Below, in pieces: positions 5,911 through 54,280 of a stretch of DNA of 64,000 bases (within the stretch, counting starts at the first letter, position 1; each line of letters opens with the position of its first letter). Below the pieces are notes generated by a model. It was not told the DNA's origin, did not search any database, and saw only the letters and a program-made list of their open reading frames with translations. This stretch comes from Candidatus Melainabacteria bacterium. GTDB taxonomy: Bacteria; Cyanobacteriota; Vampirovibrionia; LMEP-6097. The stretch covers positions 12,133-76,132 of the forward strand of contig JABHOV010000059.1 in the NCBI GenBank assembly GCA_018695135.1. Reading direction: 5' to 3'. A program made the translations under genes and the position numbers.

Positions 5911-6032
5911 CCACCCACGTTGAGCCTTGCACTTCTTAACAGATAATTGCACTTTGATATACAGACTCCACCTTGACTTTGTCTGCGGGCATGCAATTAT
6001 CTGTTAAGAAGTGCAAGGCTCAACGTGGGTGG
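5911..6032. repeat. 122-bp perfect palindromic element, 41-bp arms with termini CCACCCACGTTGAGCCTT / AAGGCTCAACGTGGGTGG (family 4, copy A)
   Basis: Arms 5911-5951 and 5992-6032 are exact reverse complements. Confidence 0.9.
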
Positions 6033-7403
6033 CTATACCAAGCTAGTAACAAACTTAGTAATCAAGCCAAGATAAACCATAAATGTAATGATATCGATGG
6101 TGGTGGTGATTAATGGACCGCTTGCGACAGCTGGATCCATATCAAGCTTCTTGAATAAGAATGGAGTGATAGTACCAAAGGCAACGGCAAGCATCATGGA
6201 AATAATCAATGATAGCCCGATGAGAAAAGAGAGAGTTGGATTGTGGTAAGAAAAGAATGACATTAGTCCAGTAATCACCGCGCAAGTAAGTCCAATACTA
6301 AAACTAATAATCAGTTCGTGAACCAGTATCTGAGAGCTTTTACCAACTTGAATTTCACCAGTGGAAATCCCACGAACGATAATGGTAGAACTTTGGTTAC
6401 CCAAATTCCCTGATAGTCCAGAGAGTAATGGCATGAAGGATATAGCAATGGGGATTGCCATGATTGTTGCATCATAACTAGCAATTAAAGAAGCTGCCAA
6501 GTATTGACCAAGCAAGGTGATGATGATCCAGGGAGTTCTTGCTTTGTAGGCACTCGCATATTCTTTAACCAAGGATGTGACTACGTTTGAGCTGTCTTCC
6601 GTTTCAACATTAATACCACTTGATTGATAAATATCTTCAGTCGTTTCATCTTCGATAACTTCAAAGGCGTCATCAATAGTGATGATACCGACTAGCTGGT
6701 CATGATCATTGATAACGGGCACGGCAAGGAATTTATATTTGGCAAATAAATCTGCAGCAAGTTCTTGGTCATCATTAGCATGAACAGCAATGACTTCTGT
6801 GTTCATGTGCATTGCTACTGTATCCGTATCTGCAGCTAAGAATAATTCTCTTAGGCTCATGATCCCTACAAGCTCACCAAATCTTTTGGTGACAAAAATA
6901 TACATGATCTCAATATCTTCTTCGCGTGCTTTGAGTCTTACGTAACGCAGTGAAGCAGCAATTTTGAGGTCTTCACGAACACTAATGAAACTAGGTTTCA
7001 TGATACCACCACAGGTATCTGGATCATGACACAGTAGTTCTTTGATTTCAAATGGTCTTTGAATATTTTCCAAGATGCGCATCATGCGATCATCGTCAAG
7101 TAAGCTGACGATATCAGCGGCATCATCCAGTTCCATGTTGTTGGTGAATTTAGTTATTTGTTCATCGGATAAAGTTTGCATCACTTCTTCAATATCGTGA
7201 TTCTCTAGTTCAACCAGAACTTCAGCTCCCTGTTTGTAAGAAAGAATATCGAAGAGATGGGCTTTTTTGTTTTGCTCAAGATTGTGATATTCTTCTGCAA
7301 TATCTTGTGGGAAGAATTCATCTAAAACCGCGCGCAACTCTTTAAGATCGCAATCATCGATCTCGCTGAGTATATTGTTTAAATTGAGGGGGTTTTGGGG
7401 CAT
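6033..7403 (-). CDS. mgtE: Magnesium transporter MgtE
   Basis: N-terminal MgtE_N, tandem CBS and C-terminal TM MgtE domain residues (GNLGNQSSTIIVRG, PLITTTIDI). Confidence 0.9.
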   Translation of the reverse strand: MPQNPLNLNNILSEIDDCDLKELRAVLDEFFPQDIAEEYHNLEQNKKAHLFDILSYKQGAEVLVELENHDIEEVMQTLSDEQITKFTNNMELDDAADIVSLLDDDRMMRILENIQRPFEIKELLCHDPDTCGGIMKPSFISVREDLKIAASLRYVRLKAREEDIEIMYIFVTKRFGELVGIMSLRELFLAADTDTVAMHMNTEVIAVHANDDQELAADLFAKYKFLAVPVINDHDQLVGIITIDDAFEVIEDETTEDIYQSSGINVETEDSSNVVTSLVKEYASAYKARTPWIIITLLGQYLAASLIASYDATIMAIPIAISFMPLLSGLSGNLGNQSSTIIVRGISTGEIQVGKSSQILVHELIISFSIGLTCAVITGLMSFFSYHNPTLSFLIGLSLIISMMLAVAFGTITPFLFKKLDMDPAVASGPLITTTIDIITFMVYLGLITKFVTSLV

Positions 7404-7619
7404 CCAATAATCCTATATACATTAAGCCACGAGCACCATCCTAGCAAAACGCTTAGAGAGAGATGGGTGATCTTATCCTGATAGGGAACCATTTCCAGTA
7501 AAAAGCACGAGACTAATATAAAATACTGATTGAGACTTGGTAAAGTTGTTAAGAATGGGACTAGATAAAAGGAGTCATAACTGGGTAATCTGGTAAATAG
7601 AATTTTAATTGGCTTAGCT

Positions 7620-16284: not shown

Positions 16285-16307
16285 TGTGCTGTTTTAATTA
16301 TACCCAT

Positions 16308-16397
16308 TGGGGTCGTATCCTGACATTGGACATTTCTACGGGTTAGGTATTATCACCTTGTTATTAGTTCAAAATGTCCAATGTCAGGATACGACCC
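16308..16397. repeat. Family 2 palindromic element: 26-bp arms GGGTCGTATCCTGACATTGGACATTT / reverse complement around a ~36-nt unique loop
   Basis: Exact inverted repeat; same arms at 47237-47325 and 54184-54276. Confidence 0.9.
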
Positions 16398-16451
16398 TGA
16401 TGGGTCATATGGACTATCTAGATATCCCAGTTAAAGCCGATTAACTATTAT

Positions 16452-31162: not shown

Positions 31163-31352
31163 CCACCCACGTTGAGCCTTCAGATAAGATCCCACCCGCT
31201 GCGTGACATACGCCACTTTTAAGATAAATCGTCTACACAATGGTATTTCTCTGTTGAGTCAGTTTTAGATATCATTTATCTTAAAAGTGGCGTATGTCAC
31301 GCAGCGGGTGGGATCTTATCTCAAAAAGTGGTAAAGGTTGAGACGTGGGTGG
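31163..31352. repeat. Family 4 palindromic element, copy B (~190 bp): termini CCACCCACGTTGAGCCTT / AAGGTTGAGACGTGGGTGG, 49-bp inner inverted repeat
   Basis: Read in sequence; shares 18-bp termini with 5911-6032. Confidence 0.85.
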
Positions 31353-38376: not shown

Positions 38377-39414
38377 ATGCGTTACCTCTGCTTGATTCTA
38401 TTATTGTTTAGCTCTTCTGCTTGTTCTAAAAAAGCTGCCCCGGTTGCTGCCGTAAAACCATTATTTGTCAAAGCAGAAGCTGCAACTACCGGTGATATAG
38501 AGCGTGCCTTTGAAACGGCTGGTGAACTGAAAGCGGATAAAGAGATTTTGGTTGCAGCTGAGCGGCCGGGGATGGTCAAAGAGATTTATGTGCGTGAAGG
38601 ACAATGGGTTAAGGCAGGTCAGGCTTTGATTCAAATAGAGGGTAAGGATGTTGATGCTGATTTAAAAAAAGCACAAAGTGATTTTGCTTCTTACCAAAAC
38701 CTGTTTGATCAGGGAGCTATTTCTAAACAAGAACTAATTAATTATGAAGCTCAACTGCGTAGAGTCGAGTCACAGATTGATAATCTCCAGATTAATGCAA
38801 TTAGTTCTGGATTTATTGGGGTGATATATGTTGATCCTGGTGACTATGTTAAACGAGGTGATAAGATTCTGGATTTGGTTAAGATTTATCCATTGAGAGT
38901 GAGTTATTCGGTGCCAGAGAAATTGATCTCCAAAATTTTAATTGGACAAAGCGTAGAACTACGTACTGACTCAGAAGCTGGCAAGGTTTTTAATGCAAGT
39001 GTTGATTTTATTTCACCAAGAGTTGATCCTAATACTAGAGCGGTTTTAGTTCGCGGGAAAATCAATAGCCCAAGTACTAATCTCAAAGCTAATCAGTTTG
39101 TTACTGTCAAACAAGTTATTAATAGTTCTAATACGACTTTATTGGTGAGAGAAGAAGCGCTCTATCTTAATCAAGGACAGGAGTATTTGTATCTCGCGTC
39201 GTCATTGCGAGCCGAGGCGAAGCAAGCTAATGTAGAGACTCCGGAGATCGACGCGTCTGATGAACTTGTAGCCAAACGTGTAGCTGTAAAAACCGGTCAG
39301 AGACAAGAAGGCATGGTAGAAATTTTAGAAGGTATTGAAGCTGGTGACAATGTGATCTATGCTGGTTTGCATAGTATTTATCCTGGGGCTAAGTTGGTTT
39401 TGGTTAGTGACTAA
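38377..39414 (+). CDS. RND efflux periplasmic adaptor (membrane fusion protein), lipoprotein; contains family-3 repeat fragment
   Basis: Lipobox SSSAC, coiled-coil hairpin, lipoyl and beta-barrel segments. Confidence 0.8.
   Translation: MRYLCLILLLFSSSACSKKAAPVAAVKPLFVKAEAATTGDIERAFETAGELKADKEILVAAERPGMVKEIYVREGQWVKAGQALIQIEGKDVDADLKKAQSDFASYQNLFDQGAISKQELINYEAQLRRVESQIDNLQINAISSGFIGVIYVDPGDYVKRGDKILDLVKIYPLRVSYSVPEKLISKILIGQSVELRTDSEAGKVFNASVDFISPRVDPNTRAVLVRGKINSPSTNLKANQFVTVKQVINSSNTTLLVREEALYLNQGQEYLYLASSLRAEAKQANVETPEIDASDELVAKRVAVKTGQRQEGMVEILEGIEAGDNVIYAGLHSIYPGAKLVLVSD
39193..39260. repeat. Family 3 repeat fragment inside adaptor ORF (..TCGCGTCGTCATTGCGAGCCGAGGCGAAGCAAGCTAATG..CGACGCG)
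   Basis: Left arm near-identical to 51136-51167. Confidence 0.75.
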
Positions 39415-45661: not shown

Positions 45662-47236
45662 ATGTCTAATTTTCGTTATCGCAGCATACAAATACTCATT
45701 GCTTTAGCATTTCTTGCTATCTTGGGACGTTTATTTCAATTTCAAATTCTTAATGGGCAAAAATATTCTGCTTACATTAAGCGCTATGGACAGACCTACA
45801 AAATTAGTCCTGCAAGAGCAGAGATTGTTGATCGTAACGACAAAGTACTTGCTTTGGATTTGATGAAATATACACTTGAATATAATCCCGTGACTACTAG
45901 TGAGGATAGAGGCATGCTTGCTTTCAAACTAGAGCAAATGATTGATTTGAAAGATCCAGAAGATCTCAATGCTAGTTATAGTAAGACTCTTGCGCATGGT
46001 TTGAGTCGCGAACAGGCAAACAAAATTAGGAAGCTTGATTCCAAATTATTATACTTGCGTCAAGTTAGGCGCAGATTTTATCCACAAGATGAGCTGGCTT
46101 CTCATGTGCTTGGCTATGTTGATCTTTATGGACAAGCAAGGCAAGGTATTGAAGCTGACTATCAAAAGAGATTAGAAGAAGACTCAGAGAACAAGCTTAG
46201 ATTGAGCTTGGATTCTCGCTTGCAAGTTTTTGCCGAAACAGAATTAAAGAAGCGAATTGCTGAAACGAAGGCGGCAAGAGGGACTGTTTTGTTAATGGAA
46301 GTTGCTACTGGACAAATGATGGCAATGGCTACTAGCCCAGGATTCAATCCTAATAACTATTTTGATTTTAGTTTGTCACAAATTAAAAACTGGCCTTTGG
46401 TTGATGTCTATCAACCGGGTTCTATTTTTAAGATAGTGACAGTGGCATCTGCCCTAGAGTCTGGGACTATAGATTTGAGTCATCGTTTTGTAGATGAAGG
46501 CTTTTTGGAGATTGATAAATGGAAAATCAAAAATCATGAATACAAACTAGGTAAGACTGAGGCTGAGGAATTGAATCTGCAAAACTTGTTTGAACGATCA
46601 AGTAATACTTTTGCTGCACATCTGGCACTAGCAATGGGTCCTAAGGTTTTTCATGATCAGATTAGCAAGTTTGGCTTTGGGCAAAAAACGGGGATCGAAT
46701 TAAGTGGGGAGTCCAAGGGTATTTTGCTTAAGCACAAAAAATGGCGTAAGTCCGATACTGCAACTACAGGCATGGGTCATGGTGCCATTTCTGTTACTCC
46801 GTTACAGTTGCTGGCAGCAGCTAATGTCATTGCCAATGACGGTCATTGGGCTAGACCGACTTTGTTTCTTGATTCTAAACAGCCGTTGGCTGAAGAGCTT
46901 GAACCAATTATCAGTGCTGAGCATGCTTATAGTATTAGAAATCTTTTGGCAAGAGCCATTGATCACAATTTGAAATTCAAATCTAGCGTGGCTGGACGTG
47001 TTGATAATTTGACGATAGCTGGTAAAACTGGCACAGCAGAGAAAATCAAAGCAGGTGGAGGCTACTCCAAAAAAGAAACAGTCGCTTCTTTCTTAGGTTT
47101 CTTCCCGGCTTATAATCCAAAATATATCGCCTTAGTTGTAATTGATGATCCCAAGACTGATGGTCGTTGGGGTGATACTGTGGCTGGACCTTTGTTTAAC
47201 AAGATTGCTGCTTACACTAGAGACTTGTATTTATAA
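45662..47236 (+). CDS. Penicillin-binding protein, FtsI/PBP2-type transpeptidase
   Basis: N-terminal TM anchor, SIFK (SxxK), KTGTAE. Confidence 0.85.
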   Translation: MSNFRYRSIQILIALAFLAILGRLFQFQILNGQKYSAYIKRYGQTYKISPARAEIVDRNDKVLALDLMKYTLEYNPVTTSEDRGMLAFKLEQMIDLKDPEDLNASYSKTLAHGLSREQANKIRKLDSKLLYLRQVRRRFYPQDELASHVLGYVDLYGQARQGIEADYQKRLEEDSENKLRLSLDSRLQVFAETELKKRIAETKAARGTVLLMEVATGQMMAMATSPGFNPNNYFDFSLSQIKNWPLVDVYQPGSIFKIVTVASALESGTIDLSHRFVDEGFLEIDKWKIKNHEYKLGKTEAEELNLQNLFERSSNTFAAHLALAMGPKVFHDQISKFGFGQKTGIELSGESKGILLKHKKWRKSDTATTGMGHGAISVTPLQLLAAANVIANDGHWARPTLFLDSKQPLAEELEPIISAEHAYSIRNLLARAIDHNLKFKSSVAGRVDNLTIAGKTGTAEKIKAGGGYSKKETVASFLGFFPAYNPKYIALVVIDDPKTDGRWGDTVAGPLFNKIAAYTRDLYL

Positions 47237-47325
47237 GGGTCGTATCCTGTCATCTGACATTTCAATGTATTACAAACGATCTTAATTAGTGATACACTGA
47301 AATGTCAGATGACAGGATACGACCC
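47237..47325. repeat. Family 2 palindromic element, variant arms GGGTCGTATCCTGTCATCTGACATTT with three compensatory changes in the partner arm
   Basis: Both arms read in sequence. Confidence 0.9.
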
Positions 47326-47871
47326 TGTTTGGCGCAGGAAATCTTCATGTGCATTTTTATTGGTGTAGTTGGTAACGCGCAAATAAGCTGACCAAGGTAT
47401 TTGATTTTCGCTTGCAACTTTGGCTATACCGTAGAGCTCCATGTTTTCTATAATTGCGTCTGTTTGATAATGTTTAATAATTTGTTTGGAGATAGTCTCG
47501 TCTTGAGTGATTTCAAGACTTGAGAGGCATAAAATATTCTTTGAATCTGGATGACTGGCGTGAAGAATAGGATAAATATCTTTGATAGTGTAGCTAAGTC
47601 CTTGAACTGATCCGAGATTTAAAAGAGCTGCAGCACTAACTATGATTTGCTCGCCAATCTTGATATTTTGGCTATAGGCACCGGCTGTGCCAGTAAAGAT
47701 GATTTCGGAGATATCGTTTCTTGATTGAAGTAGTTTAGAGAGATTGACAGCTGCTTCAAGATAGCCAATGCCAAGTACCTCTAAAATATGGGTTTTACTG
47801 GTTAAATAGGGCAAATCCGCTGGATTCTCTGCTAGTTCGTTTTTGCAGGCTGCGCAAATAAGGCTTGTCAT
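47305..47871 (-). CDS. PNP/MTAN-family nucleosidase, possible futalosine hydrolase MqnB
   Basis: Short 188-aa MTAN-like layout (..IIFTGTAGAY..). Confidence 0.55.
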   Translation of the reverse strand: MTSLICAACKNELAENPADLPYLTSKTHILEVLGIGYLEAAVNLSKLLQSRNDISEIIFTGTAGAYSQNIKIGEQIIVSAAALLNLGSVQGLSYTIKDIYPILHASHPDSKNILCLSSLEITQDETISKQIIKHYQTDAIIENMELYGIAKVASENQIPWSAYLRVTNYTNKNAHEDFLRQTGSYPVI

Positions 47872-48047: not shown

Positions 48048-48371
48048 ATGGAAGTTTCTCAAGTAAGCAAGATGCTCGCATACAGTTTTGTATCAGAGTT
48101 GATTAATAAAAAGAAAGTCAAGAGCAATGGTCGTCTTGTTGCTTCTGATGAGGTAAGTGAAGAAGCGTTTGATATTTCCGAGATGAGTTTTGGTGATCTT
48201 GAAACATATTACAAAAATGTTCTAACTATCATTGAAGATACTCCTGAAATACGAAGTTCCTTAGTTGATTCAATTAAGCGTGCTCAAGAAGATGGTGAGG
48301 ATCTAAACCTACGTTATCCAGCTAAATTAATTGCACAGGAAGAATCTTTGCAAAAACAGTTATTTATGTGA
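48048..48371 (+). CDS. Hypothetical protein 107 aa
   Basis: ORF only. Confidence 0.35.
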   Translation: MEVSQVSKMLAYSFVSELINKKKVKSNGRLVASDEVSEEAFDISEMSFGDLETYYKNVLTIIEDTPEIRSSLVDSIKRAQEDGEDLNLRYPAKLIAQEESLQKQLFM

Positions 48372-48372
48372 G

Positions 48373-48405
48373 TATTTCTGAAGCTGTAAGCTTCAGAAAT
48401 ACTCA
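48373..48405. terminator. Perfect 15-bp-stem hairpin AGTATTTCTGAAGCT-GTA-AGCTTCAGAAATACT directly after stop codon
   Basis: Read in sequence; no U-run. Confidence 0.45.
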
Positions 48406-48444
48406 TCGCGTCGTAGCGTAGTGAAGACGGATAACGTCTCTCTG
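48403..48444. repeat. Family 3-related repeat fragment TCATCGCGTCGTAGCGTAGTGAAGACGG..
   Basis: Aligns with reverse complement of 51425-51464. Confidence 0.55.
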
Positions 48445-49189: not shown

Positions 49190-50052
49190 CCTACTTGATT
49201 GAAGCTGATGACTTGGTTGCAACAGTGCCTGGGACTTTGACATTGAAAGATTTGGATAGTGATTTAATTCAACAGTGTTTAATTTCTACTTTGCTTGCTC
49301 CAGCTCATTATACAATTGCACAAATCTTGGCAGAGGATTGGGGACATGACGCTAGGCAGGTTCTGGGACTTGGTTTGAAACATGCCAGTGGCTTGCATAC
49401 CAAAACCGGCGGCAAGGTAATCAAAAATGTATCTGGTTATGATTTGAGTAAAATATATTTAGGTAGTTGCGAATCCTTGGCAAAGATTGAAACAGCAAGT
49501 TTGCGTTTGGAGAAACTACCATTATTGATTTGTGAATTGAGCTTGAAGCTTGAACGAGAACTTGATCTTGACTTGATTGTTTTTTTGCACAAAATAGCGA
49601 CGATGGATTTTGATGAGAGTTTTGATGTGGAATTAAATATGCTCGGTGAGATCAAGTTGAGTTTTACTGCCACAAGTAAAGAACTCATGGCTTTGAAACA
49701 AGCTCGCTTGGCTAGAAGGCTAGAAGGTTTTTGGGATCATGAACTTAGTTTGGATTTTGTGGTACAGCCTTATAAAAAACAATACCCCAGTACTGATTTA
49801 AGGATTGAAATTCATGGAGTTTTGACGACTTTGCTCAATACCGCAAAGTCATTAGGGCAGCCTTGTCAGATCTACCCCAAGAGAGGCTATCTACTGTTAG
49901 AGTCTTCTGTCCAGAATTTAAAAAAGCTAGATGATTGTTACTACTATGTTTATCCCAAGACCGATGAAAACAAAAAACTAGAAACCCAGTTGAACGATAC
50001 TGATAACGCAGAGTTGGATTTATTCAAACAACTCCAAAAGGATTTTGCTTAA
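49186..50052 (+). CDS. GlcE-like FAD-binding subunit lacking the N-terminal part of the FAD_binding_4 domain
   Basis: KTGGKVIKNVSGYDLSKIYLGS motif of glycolate oxidase GlcE; starts where GlcE homologs are ~90 aa in. Confidence 0.55.
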   Translation: MTYLIEADDLVATVPGTLTLKDLDSDLIQQCLISTLLAPAHYTIAQILAEDWGHDARQVLGLGLKHASGLHTKTGGKVIKNVSGYDLSKIYLGSCESLAKIETASLRLEKLPLLICELSLKLERELDLDLIVFLHKIATMDFDESFDVELNMLGEIKLSFTATSKELMALKQARLARRLEGFWDHELSLDFVVQPYKKQYPSTDLRIEIHGVLTTLLNTAKSLGQPCQIYPKRGYLLLESSVQNLKKLDDCYYYVYPKTDENKKLETQLNDTDNAELDLFKQLQKDFA

Positions 50053-51344
50053 TGGACGCAGCGACGATTAATGAAACGATTAAGGCTTGTATTCATTGCG
50101 GTATCTGCCTGCCAGCCTGCCCGACTTATCAGGTAACAGGTAATGAAGGACATTCGCCGCGTGGAAGATTGTACTTAATTAATGATCTCTTGACTAATGA
50201 GACTGGAGCCAGGGAAGATGTCGTTGAGTATTTGGATGGCTGCCTTGAATGCTCCGCCTGTGAAACGGTCTGTCCATCAGGTGTTGACTATGTCAATATT
50301 CTTGAATATGCTCGCCATGAATTGGGTCTGAGCAATTACACTAAGGGCTTTATGGCTGCTGTTAGACGCCTGGTGTTCCAGTATTTATTGCCGAATAGAG
50401 TCTTGTTGAATCTGGCAAGAGTGATGGGGCGTTTTTTGCCTTTGCGGTTATTCAATAAGCTAGCGCCGGGTTTTGATTTTGAATACAAAAAAATCAAGAC
50501 GGATTATATTTATAAATCTCAAAGTCGGACTTCGCGGACAGTCTCCATGCCACTGGGTTGTGTAATGGATACGATTTATAATGATGTGCATTGGGATAGT
50601 ATTCAAGTACTCAACGCTTTTGGTTATGATGTCTATATACCTGAAACTCAGTGCTGCGGTGCTCTTGCTTATCATAGTGGTGAAAACAAACTTGGTGAAA
50701 AACAGCTTGAGGAAACCACGTCGATACTAGCTAAGCATCAGTATCCAGTAGTAATGAACTCAGCGGGTTGTGGGGCTTTTATTAAAAATCATTCTGATTT
50801 AGAATCGATGGATTTAATTGAGGCTTTGAAACAAGCACCGTCATTGCGAGGAGCAGACGCGGCGCGGCAATCTAACGCAGGGGACTGGATTGCCACGCAC
50901 TCTTTGAGTGCTCGCAATGATGAAATAATTTATGCCGTTTACCACCCTGCCTGTCATCTCAATCATAAGCAAGGAGTCTCGCAAGACTATGTTGAATTGT
51001 TGAAAAGAATCCCAAGTTTGGAATTAATACCACTACATGAAGCAGACCTTTGTTGCGGCTCGGCTGGATTTTATAATTTAATTCAAAGCAAGCTTGCTGG
51101 TGAGATTGGTAAACGTAAGGCAGAGAATATTACATCGTCATTGCGAGCGTTAGCGAAGCAATCTAATGCAAGATCCAAGGGCGCGGCAATTAAATTCTCT
51201 GTATTAGATTGCTTCGCTAACGCTCGCAATGACGTGATTGTACTTACTGCAAATCCCGGTTGCATGTCTCAAATCCAAGCTCACTTGGGTGATGAATATC
51301 AAGTTATGCATCCTATTAGTTTGATTAAGCAATACTTGAATTAG
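50052..51344 (+). CDS. glcF: Glycolate oxidase iron-sulfur subunit GlcF-like with two in-frame family-3 repeat insertions
   Basis: Two CxxCxxCxxxCP ferredoxin motifs, two CCG domains. Confidence 0.8.
   Translation: MDAATINETIKACIHCGICLPACPTYQVTGNEGHSPRGRLYLINDLLTNETGAREDVVEYLDGCLECSACETVCPSGVDYVNILEYARHELGLSNYTKGFMAAVRRLVFQYLLPNRVLLNLARVMGRFLPLRLFNKLAPGFDFEYKKIKTDYIYKSQSRTSRTVSMPLGCVMDTIYNDVHWDSIQVLNAFGYDVYIPETQCCGALAYHSGENKLGEKQLEETTSILAKHQYPVVMNSAGCGAFIKNHSDLESMDLIEALKQAPSLRGADAARQSNAGDWIATHSLSARNDEIIYAVYHPACHLNHKQGVSQDYVELLKRIPSLELIPLHEADLCCGSAGFYNLIQSKLAGEIGKRKAENITSSLRALAKQSNARSKGAAIKFSVLDCFANARNDVIVLTANPGCMSQIQAHLGDEYQVMHPISLIKQYLN
50839..50922. repeat. Family 3 palindromic repeat, copy inside GlcF (CGTCATTGCGAG..CTCGCAATGATG)
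   Basis: Arms CATTGCGAG/CTCGCAATG with nested GGCAATC/GATTGCC. Confidence 0.8.
51136..51234. repeat. Family 3 palindromic repeat, full copy: 32-bp perfect arms CGTCATTGCGAGCGTTAGCGAAGCAATCTAAT / ATTAGATTGCTTCGCTAACGCTCGCAATGACG
   Basis: Read in sequence; in frame in GlcF. Confidence 0.9.
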
Positions 51345-52692
51345 TCGTTTGACAAAAACTCCTAGCCACCTTAGCTATATTACCCGCTCCCACTATAAAT
51401 AAATAATCGCAGTCTTGTAAATGTCCGTCTTCTCTCTCGTTTTCGCTCCGCTTCGACGCGATGAAACTTTCAATACCAGGTCTCAGAGCAGCTACCATAT
51501 CAGCATGATTACCTTGGCTAGTAGCTCTTGTATCTATCGGTGCTAAGAACTGCACATTGGTTTTATTAATTGCAGCAACCAGTGAAGCCGAATCAACACC
51601 ATTGATATGCTGACTACGAGCTACATAAATATCAGCAATCAAACAAAGATGCGGTTCAGGAAATTCTTTGAAGACTTCTATAAAATCATTCCAAAATTGT
51701 TGAGTACGTTCTGGGTGATGTGGTTGATATACAAAAACTAGTCGTTTGGGATTGAGGCTTAGAACTCCTTCTAACAGTGCTCGCAGTTCGGTGGGGTGGT
51801 GGGCGTAGTCATCATATACACGAATGCCGTTATAGTCTGAATTGATCAGTTCAAAACGGCGCTTGATGCCATTAAAAGATTGAAGAGCTTTAATTGCAGC
51901 TTCTGTGTTAAGCCCTAGTGCCTCTGCTGCTTTGATGCAACCCAATGCATTGAGCTTATTGTATTCACCTGGCATTGTTAATTGAATGTCGTAGTCATTT
52001 AATTCAGAACTTGAATATCTAATCAAAGTCTTTCCACTCGATTGCTTCGCTTCGCTCGCAATGACGTATTCCTTGAGTAACGCATCATCCATATTAACAA
52101 CAGCAATTTCTGCACTATCAAGAAATTTATAAAAACAATCACGAATCTCATTCAGTCCACCAGGATAGTTCTCAAGATGGTCTTCTTCAATACAAGTAAC
52201 CAAGGCTAGATATGGATTGGTAATGGTAAAGCTCTTGTCGCTTTCGTCACCCTCGAGCACAAAATACTCTCCAGAACCTGCTTTGGCATTACTCTGATAA
52301 TTCGATAGAATTCCACCTACTGCAAAACTAGGATCAAAACCAGTCTCAACTAAAATATGTGCAAGCATCGCTGAGCAAGTGGTTTTGCCATGAGTGCCCG
52401 AGATGACAATTTGTTTGTGTCCTTGAGATAAATAATTCAGCATATCTCTGCGGTGCCAAACAGGCAAGCTGCGAGATTTGAGTTCGAGGTAATCAGCATC
52501 ACCGATACCAATTGCAGTACTGCGCACTACTAAGTCAATATCATTATCGAGTGGATCATTCTCTGTGTAACTTAAATCACTTTTAGAAATTTTGACCTCT
52601 GGTTTTTGCTGAGCAAGGATTTTAACCAGTGCAGACATACCGATGCCTTCGGCACCTAAAAATCTTGCATGTTTAAATCTCTCTTGAGACAT
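51325..52692 (-). CDS. murC: UDP-N-acetylmuramate--L-alanine ligase with two family-3 repeat fragments in frame
   Basis: ISGTHGKTTCSAML, DDYAHHPTE, C-terminal VGAGNIAK. Confidence 0.85.
   Translation of the reverse strand: MSQERFKHARFLGAEGIGMSALVKILAQQKPEVKISKSDLSYTENDPLDNDIDLVVRSTAIGIGDADYLELKSRSLPVWHRRDMLNYLSQGHKQIVISGTHGKTTCSAMLAHILVETGFDPSFAVGGILSNYQSNAKAGSGEYFVLEGDESDKSFTITNPYLALVTCIEEDHLENYPGGLNEIRDCFYKFLDSAEIAVVNMDDALLKEYVIASEAKQSSGKTLIRYSSSELNDYDIQLTMPGEYNKLNALGCIKAAEALGLNTEAAIKALQSFNGIKRRFELINSDYNGIRVYDDYAHHPTELRALLEGVLSLNPKRLVFVYQPHHPERTQQFWNDFIEVFKEFPEPHLCLIADIYVARSQHINGVDSASLVAAINKTNVQFLAPIDTRATSQGNHADMVAALRPGIESFIASKRSENEREDGHLQDCDYLFIVGAGNIAKVARSFCQTTNSSIA
51425..51464. repeat. 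Family 3-related fragment inside murC 3' region
   Basis: Reverse complement TCATCGCGTCGAAGCGGAGCGAAAACGAG. Confidence 0.55.
52039..52066. repeat. Family 3 right-arm fragment inside murC (CGATTGCTTCGCTTCGCTCGCAATGACG)
   Basis: Near-identical to 51207-51234. Confidence 0.75.
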
Positions 52693-52764: not shown

Positions 52765-53886
52765 ATGGAGACATCTTCTACAAGAAATCTTGCTGGACAT
52801 TTAGATAATTTGAGAAAATTAACTCAGGGAATACAGTCTCTGCCTATAAGCTTAGAGCAAACACTTGATCAAGTTGAAACGGAACTAGATATTGCAGATC
52901 CAGTGGATCGAGCTTCAGCCAAGGCCATAAGAGAAGCGTATTTTTCCTTGCTAGAAGCATGTGGTATTCGGTTAGACGGGGAAGTTACCGAGGATCAATT
53001 AGTTGATGCAGAAGCTAATCTTGCTGATCAGTTAAATGAGCAACATGGACAAGTATTAGAACAGTTGCAGCGTATGTTTCAGTTTGCTCCAAAATTGCAA
53101 GAACTAAGTAGTGCGGCCCTTGGAACTATTATAAGTGAAGATGCAAACATGCTTACTCCTCCAGAGACCAACTCTAGTGCTCAGTTTACTTTGGATATTA
53201 GTTCTGAACTTGAATTGACAACTGCTTATATGGGCAAGGGAAACATCACCCAGTGGATGACTAGAGCCAAACCATCTAACAAAGCTCTTGCTAATTATCA
53301 TTTTGTAGAAGTTCAAAACTCTAATGATGCATCTAGCAAATCTGCTTTGGTTAATTTACTTTCAACGATGACTGGCACTGAGAAGAAAAGTTTTGTGAGT
53401 GATCAAGTGCGTTTGGCAGAAGCCAAGGCTGATAAATTAATTCAGCAGTTCTTTTATGCAAGGATCGGTGCGTTACGATCAAGGTCTGTTACTGATGATC
53501 AGATCAATCGTTGTGACGTTGAGTTTGATATGAAGATAGATCAGAATATTTATAATACTTTGAATCACCGTGTCGTGATAAAGCATGAAGACAAGCATAA
53601 GACCTTGCGTCGTTTGTGCTTCAATCAAATGATTATTCCTCAATATCGGGACTGCCAAGCTGATTTAGAAACAGCGATCGTGGATCTGCGTTTAGTTCAG
53701 TATATGGATAAAGCACTGGTAACAACTAGTTCTGTCGATGAACTAACTGTAATGTTAAATTCATTTGATGATCAGAAATCACAGCTTAAACAGCAGTTGT
53801 TTCGACCAGTAGCTGCTGATCCTGTTATTAATTTGAACGAAATTAATCTCAATGATTTACGAGATTTCTTGTTTCTGGATGAATGA
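52765..53886 (+). CDS. Hypothetical protein 373 aa
   Basis: ORF only. Confidence 0.4.
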   Translation: METSSTRNLAGHLDNLRKLTQGIQSLPISLEQTLDQVETELDIADPVDRASAKAIREAYFSLLEACGIRLDGEVTEDQLVDAEANLADQLNEQHGQVLEQLQRMFQFAPKLQELSSAALGTIISEDANMLTPPETNSSAQFTLDISSELELTTAYMGKGNITQWMTRAKPSNKALANYHFVEVQNSNDASSKSALVNLLSTMTGTEKKSFVSDQVRLAEAKADKLIQQFFYARIGALRSRSVTDDQINRCDVEFDMKIDQNIYNTLNHRVVIKHEDKHKTLRRLCFNQMIIPQYRDCQADLETAIVDLRLVQYMDKALVTTSSVDELTVMLNSFDDQKSQLKQQLFRPVAADPVINLNEINLNDLRDFLFLDE

Positions 53887-54160: not shown

Positions 54161-54183
54161 AGTGAAAAAGATTGTATCACATA

Positions 54184-54276
54184 GGGTCGTATCCTGACAT
54201 TGGACATTTGCTACACTATATATTATCCGCTGGGCAAAGTTATTTAACTAAAATGTCCAATGTCAGGATACGACCC
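54184..54276. repeat. Family 2 palindromic element, third copy
   Basis: Same 26-bp arms as 16308-16397. Confidence 0.9.
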
Positions 54277-54280
54277 TACT

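Follow-up and report, generated by a model that had tools for sequence, protein, structure and literature searches.

Ogata et al. reportedly described in 2000 the Rickettsia palindromic elements (RPE-1 type) as selfish DNA residing within protein-coding genes. Elements of this kind are palindromic, 100-150 bp long, and lie in frame in housekeeping genes that are left intact while gaining an additional peptide segment. Another group, the CGTC-tagged REP superfamily of Di Nocera, De Gregorio and Rocco (2013), includes dRS3 of Neisseria and RPE-4 and RPE-6 of Rickettsia (PMC3733652). Its units, 24-44 nt long, carry a CGTC or TGTC (or CCTC) tag, a stem of 8-9 bp that opens with A-T and then T-A pairs, a loop of 4-5 nt and a CCA(G) tail, and are for the most part arranged as inverted dimers, with spacers given as about 20-60 nt or 20-100 bp; no dedicated transposase is known for them, and in several species they are intragenic, with in-frame copies in the peptidoglycan genes murB and PBP 1C of Rickettsia conorii (PMC3733652). 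REPINs, in turn, are REP doublets that form hairpins; they are extragenic and linked to the gene of a RAYT (a Y1 HUH transposase), which has the same repeats in its flanks (Bertels and Rainey 2011, PMC3116915).

We have compared with these systems two segments of a murC gene located in a 64,000-nucleotide stretch of DNA, referred to throughout as the window, from a Candidatus Melainabacteria bacterium. The Melainabacteria are the non-photosynthetic sister group of the Cyanobacteria. A first-pass annotation had assigned both segments to a single repeat family (Family-3). The gene and the two segments are as follows.

51325-52692, minus strand: murC (UDP-N-acetylmuramate--L-alanine ligase), a 455-aa ORF, host of both inserts.
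52039-52066, minus strand: insert 1, a solo CGTC-type unit, CGTCATTGCGAGCGAAGCGAAGCAATCG, encoding VIASEAKQS, residues 210-218 (V210-S218).
51421-51468, minus strand: insert 2, 48 nt in place of 6 nt, encoding SFIASKRSENEREDGH, residues 409-424.
51438-51464, minus strand: core of insert 2, read here as a copy of repeat X.

The product of the gene contains Mur_ligase_M and Mur_ligase_C domains (Pfam), its top PDB sequence matches are MurC enzymes, and a protein with 100% identity to it is recorded for an NCBI MAG under the annotation 'Candidatus Melainabacteria bacterium'. With an alignment of 31 sequences as input, AlphaFold2 gave a model with a mean pLDDT of 90.8 and a pTM of 0.89, which superposes on the MurC structures of H. 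influenzae, E. coli and Y. pestis with TM values of 0.79-0.81. The same 455-aa sequence, identical throughout, was found on at least 7 metagenome contigs from at least 5 samples; therefore the allele with both inserts is real and established, and an assembly artefact is ruled out as the source of the inserts. The surroundings of the gene vary among the loci fetched from related genomes. In the window murC and a GlcF-like gene are convergent and overlap by 20 nt (51325-51344); in the locus of the closest relative (L001) two additional genes (142 and 215 aa, neither with a Pfam match) lie between them at 6386-7605. A 373-aa ORF with no Pfam match (52765-53886, plus strand) separates rpsT from murC in the window; locus L008 has a 367-aa ORF at the matching place, and the ORF is missing in L001, L003, L005, L006 and L009, where murC comes directly after rpsT.

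Orthologs were compared in a protein alignment of the window MurC with 30 orthologs of 51-90% identity (31 sequences), in a codon alignment of 8 sequences (the window and the DNA of seven orthologs), and in a neighbor-joining (NJ) tree based on 409 ungapped columns. In the protein and codon alignments both segments are in frame and the segments of the orthologs are shorter at both positions; both segments are insertions relative to the MurC orthologs. The orthologs have short connecting segments at the two sites, in keeping with the earlier suggestion that these are places where MurC homologs have short loops; in other taxa, no conserved MurC sequence aligns with either segment. The possibility that the segments are themselves conserved MurC sequence was rejected, as they are absent from most orthologs (insert 1) or from all of them (insert 2). 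Both are GC-rich islands, 52-57% as compared with 40% for murC, the value for insert 2 being 52%. The mapping onto a structure that had been proposed as a check points the same way: in the AlphaFold2 model both inserts come to lie at the ends of helices and in loops, where the confidence is lowered. Insert 1 is modeled as the final turns of helix 204-215 together with loop 216-221, ahead of strand 222-226 in the middle domain (pLDDT 83 for block 211-220, 97-98 for the neighboring blocks), and insert 2 as an extension of helix 399-418 and of the loop before the last strand, 430-435 (blocks with pLDDT of 69 and 62). From this model, and from the fact that the gene is intact and widely sampled, we infer that the inserts are surface-exposed and harmless; MurC with its inserts would remain functional. 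A different in-frame insertion, of ~35 aa (..NLFGKLPDARHASSEDTELTKTSMSSPRSEHNNADGT..), is present in the MurC sequences P0010, P0011 and P0017, and partly in P0012 and P0020, at alignment columns 395-436; its patchy distribution on the tree suggests a further repeat family inserting into murC.

The sequence CGATTGCTTCGCTTCGCTCGCAATGACG, whose reading on the gene strand is CGTCATTGCGAGCGAAGCGAAGCAATCG, was located exactly at 52039-52066 (28 of 28 positions; 0 matches expected from shuffles of the window), inside the MurC ORF and in frame, just as first annotated under the description of a right arm. It is an exact copy of a unit of 26-28 nt, CGTCATTGCGAG..GAAGCAATC, which also occurs in frame in two neighboring genes: apart from a one-base difference in length in the middle of the unit, insert 1 matches the arms of an inverted pair at 51136-51170/51200-51234, and it matches other copies within the window as well. 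There are 7 CGTC-type units at 4 loci in these 64 kb of genome. Besides murC, the unit is in frame in a GlcF-like Fe-S oxidoreductase, as two inverted pairs, and in an HlyD-family protein:

51136-51234, plus strand: intact inverted pair of CGTC-type units, with arms of 35 nt and a spacer of 29 nt, lying within the GlcF-like ORF 50052-51344 and in its frame.
50839-50921, plus strand: a second inverted pair, its units degenerate, likewise in frame within the GlcF-like ORF 50052-51344.
39200-39235, plus strand: solo CGTC-type unit within the ORF of an HlyD-family membrane-fusion protein, 38377-39414, in its frame and in the sense direction.

The arms of the intact pair are 97% complementary, and as single-stranded DNA the pair folds with -42.3 kcal/mol (z = -11.4); at the corresponding site L001 has a pair and L003 is empty. 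The degenerate pair folds with z = -3.8 and represents extra sequence with respect to L001, L007, L003 and L009. Both inserts of the GlcF-like protein fall in linkers of variable length, and their sites are empty in L003. At least 3 other families of near-perfect hairpin repeats occur in the window, among them the GGGTCGTATCCTGACATTGGACATTT family at 16302-16405, 47236-47326 and 54182-54278; further hairpins lie at 31179-31324 and 5911-6032. Judging from the ORF table and from sub-threshold Rfam hairpin matches, these other families appear to be mostly intergenic.

The distribution of insert 1 among the orthologs speaks to its age. The window and P0002-P0006 carry GTCATTGCGAG..AAGCAATC after 'LLKEY', while most other orthologs are 5-10 residues shorter at this site (for example, YAE-GKQLITY in P0007). 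The six carriers form one clade in the NJ tree, so that there was a single old gain: the loop that follows the 'DDxLLxxY' helix acquired the unit in an ancestor common to six sampled lineages, which have inherited it, and insert 1 is ancient rather than recent. P0008 has a unit in the same loop, read in another frame (SSSRGARSATKQS) and starting ~6 nt further on; it belongs to a different clade of the tree, whose other members have no recognizable unit. Its position, frame and offset make it a second, independent gain, so that the same MurC loop was hit independently more than once. Further units are found at a third site in the murC of P0004 and in the start-codon region of that of P0003. In P0006 (L008, 2311-3663) some 54 nt of additional sequence (VIARIQGRQNTRSIVMTGSPVQTKQSNA) interrupt the unit at site 1; these may represent a nested insertion or the remains of a tandem or double unit that has decayed. 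Between the window (52039-52065) and L001 (5702-5727) the unit is identical at 27 of 27 positions, with the murC genes being 85% identical overall and 70% at third positions, which hints, if only weakly, at some extra constraint or at gene conversion (P about 0.01).

The unit is widely distributed. Its constant boxes, (C/T)GTCATTGCGAG and GAAGCAATC, flank a variable middle of 3-26 nt, and it occurs alone or in inverted pairs. A cross-phylum scan with the pattern GTCATTGCGAG-N(3-24)-GAAGCAATC, using one genome per species, gave at least 120 loci; the matches listed come from Alpha-, Gamma- and Deltaproteobacteria, Bacteroidota, Chloroflexota, Patescibacteria, Cyanobacteria, Melainabacteria, Planctomycetota, Firmicutes and others, and among them the 26-mer of murC recurs in identical form in Bradyrhizobium, Sphingomonadales, Desulfomonilaceae and others. 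Also among the matches listed, the base before GTC is C in 141 of 225 cross-phylum occurrences (63%) and T in 76 (34%), and the commonest tail of the unit is CCAG, with CAG following AATC in 87 of the 225 copies. Within the window the 5' tag is CGTC in five of six units and CATC in one; the tail is CCAG in the 50921 copy only, and CGAG in murC. The 148 units at 80 of the loci listed, from many phyla, form 46 convergent pairs as compared with 6 divergent ones, and the spacers of the convergent pairs at these loci are 7-61 nt long with a mode near 24. The stem starts ATT...AAT and comprises five canonical pairs only (ATTGC/GCAAT); solo units fold with -2.6 to -3.4 kcal/mol (z = +0.5 to +1.0), no better than shuffles. 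An inner GC-rich hairpin of significant stability (z < -2), built from unrelated sequences, is present in about 40% of the longer units. A full-text literature search for TCATTGCGAG returned only unrelated primer sequences.

The CGTC or TGTC tag, the stem that opens with A-T pairs, the inverted dimers and the intragenic, in-frame copies are all shared with the CGTC REPs, the commonest tail across phyla, CCAG, may correspond to their CCA(G), and the taxonomic ranges of the two overlap in Bradyrhizobium, sphingomonads, Micavibrio and Bacteroidota. There are also differences. The CGTC REPs have stems of 8-9 bp, as compared with the five canonical pairs of the present unit, whose solo copies do not fold better than shuffles; the peptides listed for them include VIPAKAGI, SFPRKRES and DSRFRGND, and none of those encoded by the present unit (VIASEAKQS, SLRA..KQSN and ..ARND) is in the CGTC peptide list (Additional file 3 of PMC3733652); and Melainabacteria are not among the phyla reported (PMC3733652). 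Since the fit is incomplete with respect to stem, solo folding and peptides, we regard the unit in murC as a probable relative within the CGTC REP superfamily that stands outside its four named families, and not as a member of any of these. The inverted doublets resemble REPINs in forming one long hairpin, that of 51136-51234 being the clearest case, and the present solo units are plausibly doublet remnants like REPIN singlets. REPINs, however, are extragenic and accompanied by a RAYT gene, whereas all 19 units of the Melainabacteria loci are intragenic, and phmmer searches with four RAYT/IS200-type transposase queries gave no match among 5353 ORFs in 1.06 Mb (window and fetched loci). The 35-nt inverted arms at 51136-51234 recall a MITE, but one without target-site duplication: no direct repeat flanks this pair (ACAT / TGAT) or the one at 50839-50921. 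With RPE-1 the present repeats have in common the in-frame insertion into an intact gene and the absence from orthologs (murC sites 1 and 2 and the GlcF-like ORF); they differ in that RPE-1 is 100-150 bp long and unrelated in sequence, and in the host, an obligate intracellular alphaproteobacterium for RPE-1 and a free-living marine Melainabacteria lineage here.

Insert 2 behaves differently. It had been delimited earlier as a minus-strand fragment at 51425-51464; the strand was correct, but the 29-mer quoted for it spans only 51436-51464 and lies within the 48 nt at 51421-51468. In the codon alignment these 48 nt replace 6 nt found in every ortholog, which lengthens the gene by 42 nt net (14 codons), and where all orthologs read ..GIE-A-ELQDCDY.. 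the window reads ..GIESFIASKRSENEREDGHLQDCDY... The insert is missing in 30 of the 30 aligned orthologs, including the 90%-identical P0002, and is thus young and species-specific. Its closest relatives in the sequences covered are found at a locus 3 kb away:

48369-48432, plus strand: hairpin and repeat X, an intergenic relative of insert 2, consisting of a perfect 17-bp hairpin (48369-48405) followed by TCATCGCGTCGTAGCGTAGTGAAGACGGAT (48403-48432).

The hairpin starts at the TGA stop of a 107-aa ORF (48048-48371), and the element precedes a gene for a CobQ-type amidotransferase. Without gaps, the 27-nt core of insert 2 is identical to the L001 copy of repeat X at 25 of 27 positions, and to window 48403-48429 at 23 of 27. 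The score of insert 2 against repeat X is 44 (z = 8.2), as compared with 25.0 +/- 2.3 and a maximum of 33 for 150 dinucleotide shuffles scanned over 140 kb, none of which reached 44; likewise, a short-word BLAST search of insert 2 against all fetched sequences gave a 22/23 match in L001. Where the window has one copy, the orthologous site of L001 has three tandem 57-nt copies of TCATYGCGTCGWAGCRWAGYGAAGACGGAT; this tripled hairpin-plus-X element (L001 10426-10600, minus strand, orthologous to window 48369-48436) lies just upstream of the CobQ-type amidotransferase gene. The 3' part of insert 2 looks internally duplicated, GAAAACGAGA being followed by GAGAAGACGGACAT. Rfam at permissive thresholds gave for 49.0-54.5 kb and 47.8-48.6 kb only sub-threshold matches of miRNA precursors to hairpins, and no RNA family. 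As the best match of insert 2 is repeat X and not the CGTC units, insert 2 is derived from a second type of repeat, TCATYGCGTCG..GAAGACGG, and the two inserts differ in origin as they do in age.

Taken together, these observations lead us to the reading that murC has twice taken up a copy of a small dispersed repeat in frame, and that both copies have been kept in tolerant parts of the protein; we put its probability at roughly 80%. We consider the indels and their ages demonstrated, along with the identities of the repeats, the fact that the inserts are in frame, and the allele's persistence across several samples. The assignment of both segments to one family, in contrast, holds for insert 1, an exact copy of the unit, and is not supported for insert 2. 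That insert 2 is a decayed copy of the same CGTC unit strikes us as improbable, even if the two share TCATYGCG and GCGAAG, even if repeat X may be a distant subfamily of the CGTC unit, and even if the best local score of insert 2 against the six units of the window, 22, has P = 0.005 in mononucleotide shuffles. Against 218 CGTC units the resemblance is not significant (P = 0.32 with dinucleotide shuffles, 0.10 with GC-rich 48-mers from the window), so that it takes the smallest database together with the weakest null model to reach significance, and we did not accept this score as proof of membership in the unit family; in addition, a copy as young as insert 2, absent from a 90%-identical ortholog, should still be recognizable, and insert 2, so close to repeat X, has GACGG where the CGTC unit has GCAATC. 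Ordinary lineage-specific variation of loops with a coincidental resemblance to repeats is scarcely credible for the two segments: both sites do lie in regions of variable length among the orthologs, but the 28/28 match, with identical units in other genes and other phyla, already refutes it for insert 1, insert 2 is 8 standard deviations above shuffles, and the GC content of both stands out from that of the gene.

A serious alternative for insert 2, if a rather unlikely one, is a one-off local copying error (template switching or ectopic repair) in which the element at 48403-48432, 3 kb off, was copied in inverted orientation with no mobile family involved. In the 64-kb window, the fetched loci and a metagenome 22-mer scan, repeat X was found at two genomic places only, murC and the 48.4-kb locus, so that its other copies, in the window and L001, belong to a single neighboring locus; the copies in murC and at 48403-48432 are inverted with respect to each other; the partial internal duplication (GAAAACGAGA / GAAGACGGA) is typical of slippage; and the exact central 22-mer of insert 2 was found among the metagenome contigs only in murC of the same species. 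On the other hand, insert 2 is closer to the L001 copy than to that of the window, the tandem amplification in L001 marks a dynamic element, and further copies of X, and with them a dispersed mobile family, may exist beyond the 64 kb of genome covered.

The arrangement of the CGTC units bears on how they reach their sites. All 19 units of the window, L001 and L005-L009 lie inside long ORFs matching called genes, which encode MurC, the GlcF-like protein, the HlyD-family protein, the CobQ-type amidotransferase and a protein of the PNP/UDP phosphorylase family. Each of the nine independent solo units in the Melainabacteria loci is in sense orientation, with all three sense frames being used. The unit has no stop in the three sense frames and one TGA in one antisense frame; under a 3:2 expectation, nine of nine in sense has a probability of 0.6^9 = 0.01. 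Either a bias of insertion or selection acting on peptide or mRNA may lie behind this preference. A directional insertion process, transcription-coupled or strand-specific, in place of random insertion followed by selection, would account both for this one-sidedness and for the MurC loop hit at least twice, and we consider it distinctly improbable. The most likely account of the two uptakes in murC is that small hairpin-forming repeats would spread as non-autonomous elements, by means of a trans-acting enzyme, recombination or template switching, and that purifying selection would then keep only in-frame, stop-free, sense copies at tolerant sites. The notion that one family targets several essential genes finds no support in these data: among the hosts only murC is obviously essential, survival at tolerant sites alone explains the pattern equally well, and insert 1 is ancient and inherited.

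In-frame insertion of small repeats has already been described in Rickettsia and other bacteria, and the murC of this marine Melainabacteria genome is a new example of it in a new lineage; what it adds is one gene with two inserts of different repeat origin, and a MurC loop that was hit independently more than once. In-frame 'selfish' palindromic repeats in essential housekeeping genes, best known from Rickettsia, thus extend to the Melainabacteria. For annotation, such inserts account for GC-rich peptide segments that look odd and have low confidence within proteins that are conserved elsewhere. For the study of mobile elements, the Melainabacteria are a new lineage with a pan-bacterial repeat that is located almost wholly inside genes and in one orientation, and this pattern makes the question of insertion or selection testable on complete genomes.
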